Of a stretch of 64,000 bases of DNA, positions 5,101 to 63,916 are shown one piece after another (positions within the stretch are counted from its first letter, which is position 1; each line of letters opens with the position of its first letter). Position numbers and translations under genes: made by a program. Source of the stretch: Escherichia coli. GTDB taxonomy: Bacteria; Pseudomonadota; Gammaproteobacteria; Enterobacterales; Enterobacteriaceae. The DNA lies in assembly GCF_003334355.1 (NCBI RefSeq), contig NZ_QOWP01000001.1. The stretch is one strand, 5' to 3'. Under the pieces are notes generated by a model. The model saw nothing but the letters and a program-made list of their open reading frames with translations. It did no database searches and had not been told where the DNA came from.

Positions 5101-6635
5101 CTATCGAGGACTTAGCGCAGCTCATTTTCGACCTCAAGCAGGTTAACCCGAAAGCGATGATCTCCGTGAAGCTGGTTTCCGAACCGGGAGTAGGCACCAT
5201 CGCGACTGGCGTGGCAAAAGCTTATGCGGACTTGATCACCATCGCAGGCTATGACGGCGGCACCGGCGCAAGTCCGCTTTCATCGGTGAAATACGCAGGC
5301 TGTCCGTGGGAGCTGGGGCTTGTTGAAACCCAGCAGGCGCTGGTTGCTAACGGCTTGCGTCACAAGATCCGTTTGCAGGTCGATGGCGGCCTGAAAACGG
5401 GTGTCGATATCATCAAGGCGGCGATTCTCGGCGCAGAAAGCTTCGGCTTCGGCACTGGCCCGATGGTGGCGCTCGGCTGTAAATATCTACGTATTTGCCA
5501 TCTGAACAACTGCGCAACGGGTGTAGCAACTCAGGATGACAAACTGCGTAAGAACCACTATCACGGCCTGCCATTCAAGGTGACGAATTACTTTGAGTTT
5601 ATCGCCCGTGAAACCCGCGAGCTGATGGCACAGCTTGGCGTAACACGTCTGGTGGATCTGATTGGTCGCACCGACCTGCTGAAAGAGCTGGACGGTTTCA
5701 CCGCCAAACAGCAGAAGCTGGCGCTGTCGAAGCTGCTGGAGACTGCCGAACCGCATCCAGGTAAGGCACTCTACTGCACCGAAAACAACCCGCCGTTTGA
5801 TAACGGCCTGCTGAACGCGCAGTTGCTGCAACAGGCGAAACCGTTTGTCGATGAGCGCCAGAGCAAAACCTTCTGGTTCGATATTCGCAACACCGACCGT
5901 TCTGTCGGCGCGTCGCTTTCAGGCTATATCGCCCAGACGCACGGCGATCAGGGGCTGGCAGCCGATCCTATCAAAGCGTACTTCAACGGCACCGCAGGCC
6001 AGAGCTTCGGCGTGTGGAACGCGGGCGGCGTGGAACTGTACCTGACCGGTGATGCCAACGACTATGTCGGTAAAGGCATGGCGGGCGGCTTAATCGCCAT
6101 TCGTCCTCCGGTTGGTTCCGCCTTCCGCAGCCATGAAGCAAGCATTATCGGCAACACCTGCCTGTATGGCGCGACCGGTGGTCGTCTGTATGCCGCAGGC
6201 CGCGCGGGTGAACGTTTCGGCGTGCGTAACTCCGGTGCTATCACCGTGGTAGAAGGCATTGGCGACAACGGTTGTGAATATATGACGGGTGGTATCGTCT
6301 GCATTCTGGGTAAAACCGGCGTTAACTTCGGTGCGGGCATGACCGGCGGTTTCGCTTACGTTCTCGATGAAAGCGGCGATTTCCGCAAACGCGTTAACCC
6401 GGAACTGGTCGAGGTCTTAAGCGTTGACGCTCTGGCGATCCATGAAGAGCATCTGCGTGGTCTTATCACCGAGCATGTGCAGCATACCGGCTCTCAGCGC
6501 GGTGAAGAGATTCTGGCGAACTGGTCAACCTTCGCCACTAAATTTGCGCTGGTTAAACCGAAGTCCAGTGATGTAAAAGCACTGCTGGGTCACCGTAGTC
6601 GTAGCGCAGCTGAGTTGCGCGTGCAGGCGCAGTAA
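2175..6635 (+). CDS. gltB: Glutamate synthase (NADPH) large subunit
   Basis: ORF 2067..6635 (1522 aa). A GGGAGG RBS sits 8 nt upstream of the ATG at 2175, giving [19 protein letters not shown]... with the amidotransferase N-terminal Cys. The FMN-binding and GXGXG regions are visible. An alternative upstream start lies near 2082. Confidence 0.95.
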
Positions 6636-8066
<1,431 letters not shown>

Positions 8067-12687: not shown

Positions 12688-12795
12688 TGTGAGTCTCCCG
12701 CGGTGGGCGATGCCCACACGCTTTGGTATGAAAATTGTAGGGTACAGATGCGTTTATTTCCCCTCACCCGGTAGGGGCGAGCGAGGGGAAACAAC

Positions 12796-29631: not shown

Positions 29632-30561
29632 ATGGAACGACTAAAACGCATGTCGGTGTTTGCCAAAGTAGTTGAATTTGGCTCTTTTACCGCCGCCGCC
29701 AGACAGCTACAGATGAGCGTTTCGTCCATCAGTCAGACGGTGTCAAAACTGGAAGATGAGTTACAGGTAAAGCTATTAAACCGTAGTACACGCAGCATTG
29801 GTCTGACTGAAGCCGGCAGAATTTACTACCAGGGCTGCCGTCGGATGCTCCATGAAGTGCAGGATGTTCATGAGCAACTGTATGCCTTCAATAACACCCC
29901 CATCGGGACGCTGCGCATTGGCTGTTCTTCAACTATGGCACAAAATGTTCTCGCCGGGCTGACAGCAAAAATGCTGAAAGAATACCCAGGTTTGAGCGTC
30001 AATCTGGTTACCGGAATTCCTGCCCCCGACCTGATTGCCGATGGTCTGGATGTGGTAATCCGCGTCGGCGCGTTGCAGGATTCCAGCCTGTTTTCCCGCC
30101 GTCTGGGCGCGATGCCGATGGTGGTGTGCGCCGCGAAAAGCTATCTCACACAATACGGCATACCGGAAAAACCCGCCGATTTGAGTAGTCATTCATGGCT
30201 TGAATACAGCGTGCGGCCCGACAATGAATTTGAACTGATTGCACCGGAAGGGATCTCGACTCGCCTGATCCCGCAAGGGAGATTTGTGACTAATGATCCG
30301 ATGACGCTGGTGCGCTGGCTAACGGCGGGTGCCGGGATCGCCTATGTGCCGCTGATGTGGGTGATCAACGAGATCAATCGTGGGGAGCTGGAGATCCTGC
30401 TGCCGCGTTATCAGTCAGATCCACGCCCGGTTTATGCGTTATATACCGAAAAAGATAAGCTGCCGCTGAAGGTACAGGTCGTGATCAACTCGCTGACGGA
30501 TTATTTTGTTGAGGTCGGTAAATTGTTTCAGGAGATGCACGGGCGCGGGAAAGAGAAGTAA
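29632..30561 (+). CDS. aaeR: LysR-family transcriptional activator AaeR
   Basis: 309 aa with an N-terminal LysR HTH (MSVFAKVVEFGSFTAAARQLQMSVSSISQTVSKLE), divergent from aaeXAB. Confidence 0.92.
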   Translation: MERLKRMSVFAKVVEFGSFTAAARQLQMSVSSISQTVSKLEDELQVKLLNRSTRSIGLTEAGRIYYQGCRRMLHEVQDVHEQLYAFNNTPIGTLRIGCSSTMAQNVLAGLTAKMLKEYPGLSVNLVTGIPAPDLIADGLDVVIRVGALQDSSLFSRRLGAMPMVVCAAKSYLTQYGIPEKPADLSSHSWLEYSVRPDNEFELIAPEGISTRLIPQGRFVTNDPMTLVRWLTAGAGIAYVPLMWVINEINRGELEILLPRYQSDPRPVYALYTEKDKLPLKVQVVINSLTDYFVEVGKLFQEMHGRGKEK

Positions 30562-30688
30562 TTCATATTGTACTGTTACGTTGTACAAACCTGTGCCAAC
30601 GGGTTCCCCTCACCCTAACCCCAGAGGAGCGAGGGGACCGTTCGTGCACGTAGAAAGATTAATTATCCTTCTGAAAATACTGAAATTA

Positions 30689-32149
<1,461 letters not shown>

Positions 32150-32181: not shown

Positions 32182-32400
32182 GCCGGATGCGGCGTGAACG
32201 CCCTATCCAGCCTACGGTTATGTTCCGGTTTGTAGGCCTGATAAGACGCACAGCGTCGCATCAGGCAACGGCTGTCGGATGCGGCGTAAACGCCTTATCC
32301 GACCTACGGTTATGTTCCGTTTGTAGGCCTGATAAGACGCACAGCGTCGCATCAGGCAACGGCTGCCGGATGCGGCGTGAACGCCCTATCCGACCTACGG
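32182..32400. repeat. REP/BIME array (repetitive extragenic palindromes) between tldD and yhdP
   Basis: Repeated units gccggatgcggcgtgaacgccctatcc...cctac and gtaggcctgataagacgcacagcgtcgcatcaggca, arranged in about three tandem ~98-bp units. Confidence 0.9.
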
Positions 32401-32472: not shown

Positions 32473-35400
32473 TCATTGCGCTTTTTCTTTACGCGGTTGG
32501 CGCAACACTTCGTTGATTTGCGGATCGTCCAGCGGACCCGAAATGTGATAGCGCAAAATGGAGACTTTGCTCCACAGCGGCCCCAGCACTTTACTGGCGG
32601 CAAACACTGCCGCGCCAACAATGGGGTTAACCGCAAAAGCCGCAGCCACGCCCACCGTCGCAGAAATCTCTGGTGCGACAACCGCTTCCATATTCAGGTC
32701 GCGACGTACCAGATTTACCGACCCTTTCATGGCGATATCCGCCTCCAGGCCATCCACCAGCGTGTCGTCGGTGTGCATAACGCCGTCTTTAATCCACGCG
32801 GTGCTGCGAATGGAGTCAAAATAGAACCCTTCGCCAAAAGTGTCTCTGAAATCAAAACGCAGCTTACGCATCAGGGCATCTACGCTCAATAAGCGCAGCA
32901 ATTGCCCGGCATGTCCGGTATTGATTTCGGTAATTTCGCCTTTACCCAGTTGAGTATGAATGATGCCATTCAACGTCGCCTCATCTGGCTGCCACGGTGC
33001 TTTACGCCAGTGTAAATCGTAATCCACATTAAATGACGACTGCCGTATGGGCGTCGTGACACCAAAAAATTCTGCGGCGGCATCAATTTTCTGCCCGCGC
33101 AGTTTTCCTTTCAGCGAGGTACGTTCATTCCCCGGATTATTAACCCATTCACCATCGGCAGTAAGCCGCGAGAAACCAGTATCAATCAGTCCATTGGTCA
33201 GCGTTAATGTATCGCCAGAAATGGTGAGATCACTGTCAATACGACCGAATTTTTGCCCCCAGAACCAGCACTCTGCGCATCGTATTTGTGCGTTCGGCCA
33301 GCCACGGAAGTTAATGCGCTCCGTTGTCGGGAAAGGTGATGACGGCGTTGAATCACCACGAGTTTTCGCCACGCTCGGGTTGTAATAAAGATATTTGATA
33401 TTCGCCAGCCACGGCGCGTTATTACGCATCGCCAGCGTGGCGTTGATTTCACGCCCTTGCGCCTCAACCTGGGTGCCATTTGCCGTCGGTTGCGAAACAA
33501 TACTCAGGTTATTCCATTGCTGATTTCCCAGCGACAACATAGGCGTACGTAACGTTATGTGTTGTGGGAAACTCGCTGCACCACCGACACTCTCCGCCGC
33601 ACCTTTCTGAAACAGGGCCAGCCACTCGGCACCATTCATCGGCGGCATATTGAGTTCAACACCACTTTGTTCCGGCAACGGCGGGAGCGTTTTACTGTCT
33701 GCCGCCCAAATAGCACGGTCGAGCGTCAGCTTTTGACCGAGCAACCAGCGGCTATTGAAATGGTTATCCGCACCAGCCTGTCCGGTTAAATCAAAGCTGT
33801 TGAGATTGCCATCAACCTTAACGTTTACCGGCAGTGGTTCACCCGCAGGTTTGGCTAACGGTGAAGGTAAGTGACTGCTCACATTCTTCAAATCGCCGTT
33901 TAGCTCTACGTTATACGTCGCGCCAGCATGATAAGGCAGAACAATGCCCACTTTACCATCCCACGCCACGCTGCCACTCAATGCTTCGTTCACCGCTGCA
34001 GGCAGAACGCCGGTTTTCGCCGGTTGCCAGTTACCGTTGAGGTTTACCGCTACCTGGTAGGCTTTTGCCCCTTCTTTGGTGGAAAAATCCACGTTCAACG
34101 GCTGATTAAACCAGCTTGCTGTCAGTGGTTCACTTTGCAGATCGCCATTGATAAAGCTGAATTTACCGCTCAAATTTTTCAGGGTGCTGGCGAGTGGTTT
34201 GATAAACAGACTGTTATTACGCAGCGTCACTTCACCTTTCGCGGTTACCAGCTCGCCGTTCAGCGGGATATCAAGATGTAAGCGAGCATTCACATCGCCG
34301 TCGAGCTGGAGTTCTTGCAGGGTCGCACCCAGAGAATCTTTCAGCGGTGTCTCATCAAAGTAAGGGCCAACGGCTTTACCCGGACCTTTAATGTCAGCGT
34401 CAATCAGCAGTTTTTCTTTTGAGTAGTCAGGGATCACTGCGGTAAGATTACTCGCGCGCACGCCGCCCAGATTAACGCCATCGGTTTTCATCCATAAACC
34501 GTCGTTAATAAAGTCCAGTTCAATATCAAGGTTAGTTAATGCAGGCCAGTCCGGCTGGAAGGCAAACTTCGCGTTGCGCAGCGGCACCAGCACTTCAAAC
34601 TGACCTTCGTTGTGTTTATAGGGGAAGAGTTGCGGATTGCCACCATAAACCAGCGTCGCGTTATCCGCTTCACCGCCCTGAATCGCGCCACTTAAGTAAT
34701 CAACCAGGTCTTTACCCATCAAGTTTTCCGGGAAATAGCGCCAGGCTTGTGAACCATCATCGGTACTGATGCCAGCCAGAATACCCAGCCAGGGTTCATC
34801 GTTAGCAGGTTGCAGGTAACGAAAACCGCCGCGCGCATGGACGGCTTTGGCTTTAACGTCAATATTACGCCCATCCAGCTGGAAACCTTTGTTATTGTTC
34901 AGCCAGCTTATAGTTGCCTGGCCGTCGGCGATTTCTAGTGGCGCACGGAATACCGTTTCGTAAGGCATCTTTGCCTGCTTCATCGACGCGGTAAGCAAAC
35001 CATTTTCAACGCTGCCGGAAAGCGTCCCGGAGAAGTGTTCCGCACCCGGTAATAATTTCCATTGCTTCCAGGCCAGATCGCTCCACGATGCCTGAAAACG
35101 GGTCTTGTCTGCCGCCTGAAGCGGGATATCCAGCGCCAGAGTGTTAATCTTGCCGCTCGGTTGTGTGGAGCGCCAAACATCACCCAGTGCAGGTGAAAGT
35201 TTCGCGGCCAGCGGGCGTATGCCCTCCAGGCCTGCCAGCTCCAGATTACTGGCGCGAATCCGGAGTTCGTCACTGCGTTTATTGTCTTTGCCGCCAACGT
35301 CCTGTTCCGGTATCCAGGCCAGCGTCAATGCTCCGCTCGGCCAGGGTTTGCCGTCCATCGTGATCCGTGTATCGGGAATAGAGAACTGCCAGCCCGGATT

Positions 35401-36273
35401 TTCACGCGTAATATGCGCGGTCAGATTATCCACCGACAGCGTATGCGTTTGCTTCTCGCCCAACCAGCTGGCACCGCCCTGTTTCAGCCAGACGTCACCG
35501 CCGGTTACATCGCCTTTGTCGATCGTCATCCAGCCTTCAAGGGAGAACTGTGCCGTTTCCAGCGCAATATTGTCCTGCATCCATTTACCGAGCCACGGCT
35601 TCAGGTCGATGTCATCCGCCTGGAGCCAGACGCGACCATTGCTTAACAACCCCTCATCATCGCGCAAATCCATGCGCACCTGCATCACGCCGTGCTGTCC
35701 GGTAAGGCTGGAGAGGCTTACCAGACCTTCCGCACGGTGTCGACGTGGATCGTTCAGCCAGGTGAGTTGTGGGATCGCCAGCTCGGCGCGCTGACCGGAT
35801 GGCGTCAGGAAACTGACTTCACTGTCGCGGAGATCGAAATGGTCAAATTGACGAAGAAACAGATCGCTGATGTGGCTGGCTTCCAGACTGTCATCGCTAC
35901 CACCGCTGGTGATAGGAGTGTTGGTGCGAAAGCGCAGCTGCCAGAAAGTGAGATCGCGAAACTGCCAGCGCATATGTAACAGGCTCTGCCAGACATCCAG
36001 CGCCAGAGTAACGCGTTTAACCGAAAATTCGCCGCCATCTTTTAGTTCTGCACGGATGTCGTGTGCTTCAAGCGTCGGGCCAAAATTCTGCCAGCTGGCT
36101 GAGAGCTGACTGGCTTCAACCGGCATGCCAGTCGCGGATTCTATTTTGTTGAGGATTTCCGGACGCCAGGCGTCAAGATGCGGTAAAGCAATACGCAGGC
36201 CGCTAACCAGCAGGGCAGCGATCACAACGAGCGCGGCTCCAGTAAGCAGTAAAATCCCCGGCAATCGCCTCAC
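32473..36273 (-). CDS. yhdP: AsmA-like large envelope protein YhdP
   Basis: 1266-aa ORF with an N-terminal transmembrane anchor. Confidence 0.9.
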   Translation of the reverse strand: MRRLPGILLLTGAALVVIAALLVSGLRIALPHLDAWRPEILNKIESATGMPVEASQLSASWQNFGPTLEAHDIRAELKDGGEFSVKRVTLALDVWQSLLHMRWQFRDLTFWQLRFRTNTPITSGGSDDSLEASHISDLFLRQFDHFDLRDSEVSFLTPSGQRAELAIPQLTWLNDPRRHRAEGLVSLSSLTGQHGVMQVRMDLRDDEGLLSNGRVWLQADDIDLKPWLGKWMQDNIALETAQFSLEGWMTIDKGDVTGGDVWLKQGGASWLGEKQTHTLSVDNLTAHITRENPGWQFSIPDTRITMDGKPWPSGALTLAWIPEQDVGGKDNKRSDELRIRASNLELAGLEGIRPLAAKLSPALGDVWRSTQPSGKINTLALDIPLQAADKTRFQASWSDLAWKQWKLLPGAEHFSGTLSGSVENGLLTASMKQAKMPYETVFRAPLEIADGQATISWLNNNKGFQLDGRNIDVKAKAVHARGGFRYLQPANDEPWLGILAGISTDDGSQAWRYFPENLMGKDLVDYLSGAIQGGEADNATLVYGGNPQLFPYKHNEGQFEVLVPLRNAKFAFQPDWPALTNLDIELDFINDGLWMKTDGVNLGGVRASNLTAVIPDYSKEKLLIDADIKGPGKAVGPYFDETPLKDSLGATLQELQLDGDVNARLHLDIPLNGELVTAKGEVTLRNNSLFIKPLASTLKNLSGKFSFINGDLQSEPLTASWFNQPLNVDFSTKEGAKAYQVAVNLNGNWQPAKTGVLPAAVNEALSGSVAWDGKVGIVLPYHAGATYNVELNGDLKNVSSHLPSPLAKPAGEPLPVNVKVDGNLNSFDLTGQAGADNHFNSRWLLGQKLTLDRAIWAADSKTLPPLPEQSGVELNMPPMNGAEWLALFQKGAAESVGGAASFPQHITLRTPMLSLGNQQWNNLSIVSQPTANGTQVEAQGREINATLAMRNNAPWLANIKYLYYNPSVAKTRGDSTPSSPFPTTERINFRGWPNAQIRCAECWFWGQKFGRIDSDLTISGDTLTLTNGLIDTGFSRLTADGEWVNNPGNERTSLKGKLRGQKIDAAAEFFGVTTPIRQSSFNVDYDLHWRKAPWQPDEATLNGIIHTQLGKGEITEINTGHAGQLLRLLSVDALMRKLRFDFRDTFGEGFYFDSIRSTAWIKDGVMHTDDTLVDGLEADIAMKGSVNLVRRDLNMEAVVAPEISATVGVAAAFAVNPIVGAAVFAASKVLGPLWSKVSILRYHISGPLDDPQINEVLRQPRKEKAQ

Positions 36274-63438: not shown

Positions 63439-63558
63439 ATGCCTGGCAGTTCCCTACTCTCGCATGGGGAGACCCCACACTACCATCGGCGCTACGGCGT
63501 TTCACTTCTGAGTTCGGCATGGGGTCAGGTGGGACCACCGCGCTACTGCCGCCAGACA
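63439..63558 (-). rRNA. rrfF: 5S ribosomal RNA, distal copy (rrfF-like)
   Basis: The reverse complement matches E. coli 5S rRNA (UGCCUGGCGGCAGUAGCGCGGUGGUCCCACCUGACCCCAUGCCGAACUCAG...GGAACUGCCAGGCAU). Confidence 0.95.
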
Positions 63559-63595
63559 AATTCTTTTCTAATCTGCCGAACTTTAACCTAAAAAG

Positions 63596-63671
63596 TGGTG
63601 CTGATACCCAGAGTCGAACTGGGGACCTCACCCTTACCAAGGGTGCGCTCTACCAACTGAGCCATATCAGC
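63596..63671 (-). tRNA. thrV: tRNA-Thr (anticodon GGU)
   Basis: The reverse complement reads GCTGATATGGCTCAGTTGGTAGAGCGCACCCTTGGTAAGGGTGAGGTCCCCAGTTCGACTCTGGGTATCAGCACCA, a cloverleaf with a GGT anticodon and encoded CCA. Confidence 0.95.
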
Positions 63672-63683
63672 ACGCTAAATTTG

Positions 63684-63803
63684 ATGCCTGGCAGTTCCCT
63701 ACTCTCGCATGGGGAGACCCCACACTACCATCGGCGCTACGGCGTTTCACTTCTGAGTTCGGCATGGGGTCAGGTGGGACCACCGCGCTACTGCCGCCAG
63801 ACA
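63684..63803 (-). rRNA. rrfD: 5S ribosomal RNA, second copy
   Basis: Identical in sequence to the copy at 63439-63558. Confidence 0.95.
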
Positions 63804-63840
63804 AATTCTTTTCTAATCTGCCGAACTTTAACCTAAAAAG

Positions 63841-63916
63841 TGGTGCTGATACCCAGAGTCGAACTGGGGACCTCACCCTTACCAAGGGTGCGCTCTACCA
63901 ACTGAGCCATATCAGC
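63841..63916 (-). tRNA. thrV: tRNA-Thr (anticodon GGU), second copy
   Basis: Identical to the tRNA at 63596-63671; part of an exact 245-bp tandem unit. Confidence 0.9.

Follow-up and report, generated by a model that had tools for sequence, protein, structure and literature searches.

A strong hairpin lies between the convergent genes aaeR and tldD of Escherichia coli, and its position poses the question of whether it is a functional structure serving the ends of both transcripts or one more copy of a dispersed repeat. We have examined this in a single stretch of 64,000 nucleotides (hereafter the window), in which aaeR (29632-30561, plus strand) and tldD (30689-32134, minus strand), whose identities agree with the RefSeq annotation of identical DNA, converge on the element across a gap of 127 nt, measured from the end of aaeR at 30561 to the tldD stop codon, which starts at 30689. 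Both the gap and the convergent arrangement had been described from the sequence alone and are as described. The hairpin, gttcccctcaccctaaccccagaggagcgaggggacc, spans 30603-30639 in plus-strand coordinates, with the aaeR stop codon 41 nt before its core and the core 49 nt past the stop codon of tldD, which places it in the tldD 3′ untranslated region. The predicted folding energies of the region are −29.8 kcal/mol (z = −3.35) on the plus strand and −32.6 kcal/mol (z = −2.68) on the minus strand. The answer at which we arrive is that the element is very probably a decayed copy of the BoxC repeat, at the site of an intact and already catalogued copy in strain K-12, and most likely a near-neutral relic.

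The sequence-only reading had recognized this hairpin as the second copy of a motif at 12757-12790, and the sharing of both arms is exact and confined to these two sites in the window: the left-arm 12-mer TTCCCCTCACCC occurs at 30604-30615 and 12758-12769, and the right-arm 11-mer GAGCGAGGGGA at 30627-30637 and 12779-12789. When near matches are included neither arm is enriched relative to shuffled sequence (the observed count is equalled or exceeded in 17 of 100 shuffles for each arm); what chance is unlikely to produce is the exact occurrence of both arms at two sites with their order and spacing preserved. The right-arm identity is owed partly to one G-to-A change that the window and BL21 alleles share, other E. 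coli alleles having GGGGCGAGGGGA where these two have GAGCGAGGGGA.

The family to which the hairpin belongs is BoxC, also known as the PIT element or 'TMECO', a short GC-rich interspersed repeat of E. coli (Holder et al. 2015, PMC4666352); where that paper traces the names, it credits its references 46-47 for BoxC and its reference 22 ('Maher et al. 2000') for PIT. The published core consensus, CCCTCNCCC N3-6 GGGNGAGGG N3 GGGNGAGGG, consists of three blocks, K-12 contains 23 copies, and a TTA second loop defines the 'type A' elements (PMC4666352). We constructed an nhmmer profile from ten K-12 BoxC copies, leaving out the orthologous copy between aaeR and tldD, and it matches the window at 30649-30602 on the minus strand with 38.9 bits and E = 2.7e-11, across model positions 3-56 with a single 6-nt gap. 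The suggestion that this is a structured repeat rather than a coincidence is thereby upheld. The strict three-block pattern, to which the K-12 and O157:H7 EDL933 alleles of the locus conform, has no match anywhere in the 64 kb, the window copy being degenerate, and the profile search finds one clear BoxC copy, which is intergenic, and one marginal one in these 64 kb of the strain. Rfam searches return nothing at the gathering threshold for either hairpin, and relaxing E to 10 gives only chance-level matches.

The K-12 allele at this locus (L001/L004), CCCTCGCCCCTTTGGGGTGAGGGTTAGGGTGAGGGG, is letter-for-letter TMECO no. 14 of Table 1 of PMC4666352, located at K-12 3,390,494-3,390,529 in antisense orientation, and Supplementary Table S2 of the same paper gives its neighbours as aaeR, at 44 nt, and tldD, at 53 nt. 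The window copy shares these flanking genes and the junctions with K-12 and is thus orthologous to the catalogued copy, from which it is distinguished by two substitutions and the loss of 6 nt from the middle block. The likeness to TMECO no. 14 covers the site, the intergenic position, the 5′ flank, block 1, the TTA loop, block 3 and the 3′ flank, and in showing degeneration from strain to strain the copy also resembles the published TMECO loci. Unlike an intact BoxC it is missing 6 nt of the middle block and has a C-to-T change in block 1, and it has the potential for a hairpin only and not for a triplex. Judged by its sequence, it derives by degeneration from a catalogued family member and is not a canonical BoxC. 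The repeat and the site are therefore both already catalogued and degenerate alleles of this kind have already been described, so the finding is a known one; our literature searches found no functional study of BoxC/TMECO after Holder et al. 2015.

Read on the minus strand, which is the sense strand of tldD, the element is GTGCACGAACGGT-CCCCTCGCTCC-TCT-GGGG-TTA-GGGTGAGGGG-AACCCGTTGGCAC, and its parts can be assigned by comparison with the intact order of 5′ flank, C-block CCCCTCGCCCC, loop, G-block GGGGAGAGGG, TTA, G-block GGGTGAGGGG and 3′ flank. From the profile match and the orthology with K-12, the whole 6-nt-deletion allele of BoxC with its flanking inverted repeats extends over 30593-30649 (minus strand, as are all of its parts). 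The 5′ flank GTGCACGAACGGT (30637-30649) corresponds to a consensus, GnGCnCGnnCGGTC, that lies outside the published core, is conserved in eleven K-12 copies including the orthologous one, and has as its last C the first base of block 1; the window version, GTGCACGAACGGTC, agrees with this family flank. Block 1, the C-rich arm CCCCTCGCTCC (30626-30636), is the 'right arm' of the sequence-only reading and carries the C-to-T change relative to CCCCTCGCCCC. The GGGG at 30619-30622 is the stump of the middle G-block, as indicated by the allele alignments, the hexamer organization described below and the gap in the profile alignment, and it is followed by the TTA second loop (30616-30618), which by the published type definitions is the type A signature. 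Block 3, GGGTGAGGGG (30606-30615), the former 'left arm', pairs with block 1 in folds of the window allele, and the 3′ flank AACCCGTTGGCAC (30593-30605) pairs with the 5′ flank, lengthening the stem.

The structure is consequently not one of conserved arms around a variable loop, as had been proposed, but that of a three-block element whose 'loop' is what remains of block 2 after a 6-nt deletion. In the family alignment 96% of cells agree with the pairing of block 1 to block 3, which has one G.T wobble, against 89% for its pairing to block 2, which has a G.A mismatch; because block 1 pairs better with block 3, loss of block 2 leaves the best stem intact. With the first hexamer lost, the three-block layout needed for the intrastrand triplex seen in vitro would be gone, and the block 1–block 3 and flank–flank pairings would still give a hairpin of about −30 kcal/mol; a full triplex would not be expected with the middle strand reduced to GGGG. 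The comparison of stems for compensatory changes, which had been put forward as a check, yields none: among the ten K-12 copies no pair is altered on both sides in either of the two possible stems, the family being too uniform to inform on this point.

We aligned nine alleles at the aaeR-tldD locus, and the series shows how the element has decayed. The G-rich half of the intact element can be read as four tandem hexamers, GGGAGA GGGTTA GGGTGA GGGGAA, and is complete in K-12 and EDL933. The same 6 nt, hexamer 1, are missing from the window, BL21, Nissle 1917 and strain A3, such that the GGGAGA/GGGTGA hexamer of EDL933 and K-12 is absent from the window middle block; WP4 has the window's deletion together with one further substitution, E300010 is missing a different 6 nt (hexamer 3, in the third block) and has further substitutions, and Ecol_276 is missing 12 nt, corresponding to two hexamers. 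In isolate 538 (L003, NZ_OW967795.1) the IS4-like element ISEc13 has inserted within BoxC (116-1489 of that locus, with the junction near 1500), in the TAA loop that separates block 3 from the stump of the middle block. The match to E. coli O127:H6 (H140) is likewise split at this locus.

Among 5,422 complete E. coli genomes, and with the percentages approximate because the census uses bands of BLAST identity and rows sampled at even spacing rather than allele calls for each genome, about 2,039 (~38%) are of the full-length class (167-nt query span), about 2,819 (~52%) of a 161-nt class that is 6 nt shorter, and about 555-564 (~10%) of a 155-nt class that is 12 nt shorter; at most 366 (at least 99% identity) have the window's own allele. 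The match of the intact form to the family consensus makes it the ancestral state and the deletions derived, and since these remove whole hexamer units they fit replication slippage within a cryptic hexamer tandem repeat. The pattern of hexamer units suggests that slippage is most likely how the window strain would have lost its first hexamer, while replication stalled at a hairpin or triplex, or else repair, would produce similar deletions. Neither the degeneracy nor this explanation is wholly new, in that 'TMECO mutated' alleles and raised variability at TMECO loci are already published and Holder et al. named slippage among the possible causes (PMC4666352).

The relationship of the second hairpin to the first is less clear. 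It is located at 12757-12790 on the minus strand (TTTCCCCTCGCTCGCCCCTACCGGGTGAGGGGAAA), 5 nt past the nanA stop codon in the nanA-nanT spacer of the nanATEK operon, and although it is BoxC-like there is nearly an even chance that the two window copies are unrelated by descent, with the nan hairpin having arisen independently and sharing a CCCTC/GAGGG-type stem with BoxC by coincidence. It has neither the BoxC 5′ flank (CGGTC) nor the middle block, its similarity to the BoxC profile is confined to the last 22 nt (9.9 bits, E = 0.03), which comprise block 3 and the 3′ flank, and part of the 11-mer identity stems from the substitution specific to the window and BL21 alleles. The nan hairpin is moreover nearly invariant in E. 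coli, its region being at least 99% identical in 5,369 of 5,410 genomes, and in E. albertii it is a plain stem with perfect Watson-Crick pairing (CCCTCACCC/GGGTGAGGG), relative to which all three E. coli stem differences are wobble-compatible on the nan-sense RNA only. These differences hint weakly at constraint at the RNA level, as such a pattern would be expected by chance roughly 1 time in 8. Set against independent origin, the nan copy, with its exact 12-mer and GGGTGAGGGGAA..CGCA 3′ flank, is the second-best profile match in 128 kb, and in Kluyvera intermedia the corresponding slot, which precedes a homologous spacer module, contains a clear BoxC-type element; REP pairs fill this slot in Citrobacter and Salmonella. 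The kinship proposed in the sequence-only reading therefore stands as regards the exact arms and is in doubt as regards descent, and a BoxC relic and an independent hairpin are about evenly balanced as accounts of the nan copy. We also note a second hairpin, GTGGGCATCGCCCAC, within 12690-12756 (minus strand), just before the nanT ribosome-binding site; conservation of this hairpin extends to Kluyvera intermedia. A Rho termination region at K-12 3,372,577, at the nanT start codon and 67 nt downstream of the nanA-nanT hairpin, has coverage falling from 164 to 58 without bicyclomycin (BCM) and from 205 to 152 with it (PMC7815308), which suggests attenuation between nanA and nanT.

Returning to the aaeR-tldD element and its reading as a near-neutral BoxC relic, we consider whether it instead acts as a 3′-UTR hairpin common to aaeR and tldD, either as a bidirectional terminator or as a protector of mRNA 3′ ends; this strikes us as unlikely overall, with termination faring the worse of the two. 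A GC-rich stem-loop between two convergent stop codons is certainly what an intrinsic bidirectional terminator looks like, and the sequence-only reading had suggested such a role. The element differs from these terminators, however, in that its GC-rich stem is not directly succeeded by a T/U-run on either strand, the letters that come next being AACCCGUUGG in the tldD sense and ACCGUUCGUG in the aaeR sense, and a scan for terminator and promoter consensus sequences finds nothing at the element, with no terminator-like site on either strand. PIT elements are also reported, in PMC4666352 as it cites its reference 41, to have neither promoter nor terminator activity in reporter tests.

Published K-12 transcript data point in the same direction. 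Supplementary file 2 of Adams et al. 2021 (PMC7815308) puts a region of Rho-dependent termination at minus-strand position 3,390,148, antisense to aaeR and about 345 nt beyond the element, where DirectRNA-seq coverage, in 800-nt windows with low coverage and for the intact allele only, drops from 148 to 26 without BCM and goes from 231 to 243 with it, the fall being abolished by the inhibitor. This Rho-dependent drop past the element indicates that K-12 tldD transcription passes through the intact element and is ended by Rho, and there are no curated Term-seq 3′ ends at 3,390,3xx-3,390,6xx in K-12. A role as an intrinsic terminator is thus not supported, and the coarse K-12 data argue against an efficient one.

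Protection of transcripts fares somewhat better. The element would be transcribed into the tldD 3′ UTR and possibly into that of aaeR, where by analogy with REP elements its hairpin could at most block 3′-to-5′ exonucleases. BoxC resembles the REP and BIME (PU) sequences as a short GC-rich palindrome of intergenic gaps, often following convergent genes, but unlike REP it has no GCCGGATG/CATCCGGC core, and its asymmetric layout of C-block, G-block and G-block is specific to BoxC. We know of no RAYT-type transposase associated with BoxC. REPs, for their part, protect mRNA 3′ ends and act as partial Rho-dependent attenuators, and in positions comparable to this one they stabilize upstream mRNA and attenuate readthrough (bioRxiv 10.64898/2026.03.23.713779). 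The E. coli deletion alleles all retain stems whose energy is about −30 to −36 kcal/mol on either strand: in the tldD sense the values are −35.9 kcal/mol for the intact form, −32.6 with 6 nt deleted and −34.9 with 12 nt deleted, and in the aaeR sense −32.2, −29.8 and −36.4 kcal/mol in the same order.

The comparison with other species bears on the same point. A scan anchored on DegS recovered 80 Enterobacteriaceae loci, 55 of which contain the ends of both aaeR and tldD, and in each of these 55 the gap contains a GC-rich hairpin, whether REP, BoxC or a simple stem, some with a T-run. REP elements are found in Citrobacter, Salmonella and a lineage labelled as E. coli; the Enterobacter cloacae complex has BoxC, either as four-block palindromes or as inverted pairs of type A and type B and thus unlike that of E. 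coli; and the other species examined have simple stems. The BoxC copy at aaeR-tldD is specific to E. coli proper, and those of Enterobacter were most likely acquired independently. Because every allele and every related species retains some strong hairpin in the gap, a transcript-stabilizing role is plausible, and unrelated elements (REP, BoxC in either orientation, simple stems) recur both after tldD and after nanA across the Enterobacteriaceae. One or two G-arm hexamers are gone from around 60% of the complete E. coli genomes, yet every allele retains a stem of −30 to −36 kcal/mol. The hairpins kept in all 55 related species and the strong stems of the E. coli deletion alleles fit selection for a hairpin, such that 'near-neutral' may understate the role of the element, and we regard it as possible, though doubtful, that the conserved feature is an RNA/DNA hairpin rather than a triplex-capable three-block repeat.

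Several other observations concern this junction and its surroundings. The lineage with the REP-type gap (SCPM-O-B-8794, labelled E. coli; L020) has a TldD that is 100% identical and a 58-nt gap (18539-18596) with one REP and no BoxC; we considered whether this could be a common alternative allele, but it is carried by none of 5,426 complete E. coli genomes. The aaeR-tldD junction is also a recurrent insertion point, with extra genes in several genera and in E. albertii. In E. albertii (L021, 19228-21355) a putative sigma-54-type activator gene encoding 618 aa is present there, a small membrane-protein gene follows aaeR in several Enterobacter, Lelliottia and Kluyvera (L037, L050, L058, L066, L091), and one Pluralibacter (L057) has an 816-nt insert. 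Approximately 3.4 kb upstream of degS, a further intergenic gap in Enterobacter and Pluralibacter loci contains full BoxC copies or else a tandem array of two or three CCCTCTCCC..GGGAGAGGG hairpins (L037, L041 and L048 at ~6517-6651; L061 at 6643-6675; L069 and L070 near 6626-6939). Within the window, the gap between tldD and an open reading frame of 1266 aa at 32473-36273 contains two Rfam naRNA4 (CssrE) matches at 32235-32304 and 32326-32395 (minus strand; 77 and 71 bits). These are not REP325, which the paper describing it puts between yjdM and yjdN, but related REP-type hairpins. Two 5S rRNA genes at 63441-63916 (minus strand), each followed by an identical tRNA, mark the ordinary end of an rRNA operon in which the 5S-tRNA unit is duplicated.

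A final alternative, in which the element acts as DNA by forming the intrastrand triplex of the PIT/TMECO model, stalling replication and so promoting local genome instability, is very improbable here, for although in vitro a stable triplex does form from isolated oligonucleotides carrying the G-strand of the intact element, and variation between strains is greater at TMECO loci than at control loci (PMC4666352), and although this locus is itself highly variable (366 genomes at the 99% level, against the near-invariance of the nanA-nanT hairpin) and has an IS element within BoxC in one isolate, the triplex was detected neither in duplex DNA nor by in vivo DMS footprinting (PMC4666352), the window allele is without most of the middle block and departs from the three-block consensus that a full triplex needs, and plain tandem-repeat slippage suffices for deletions in whole hexamer units.

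We therefore return to the decayed BoxC copy as the preferred reading of the aaeR-tldD hairpin. Of the original interpretation, the assignment to a repeat family is retained, and the logic of arms and loop and the suggestion of a terminator are not. For annotation, the appropriate label is that of a degenerate BoxC/PIT repeat, the orthologue of K-12 TMECO no. 14, and neither that of a new structured RNA nor that of a terminator; beyond this its significance is small. The allele series across some 5,400 genomes, in which the G-arm is lost in whole hexamers and the hairpin is kept, nonetheless offers in tandem-repeat slippage a simpler and testable alternative to the published triplex-driven instability. 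Should the hairpin prove to be the conserved feature, BoxC relics would have been recruited as interchangeable 3′-UTR hairpins, and what has been called 'instability' at TMECO loci would amount to ordinary slippage of a hexamer repeat and not damage induced by a triplex.
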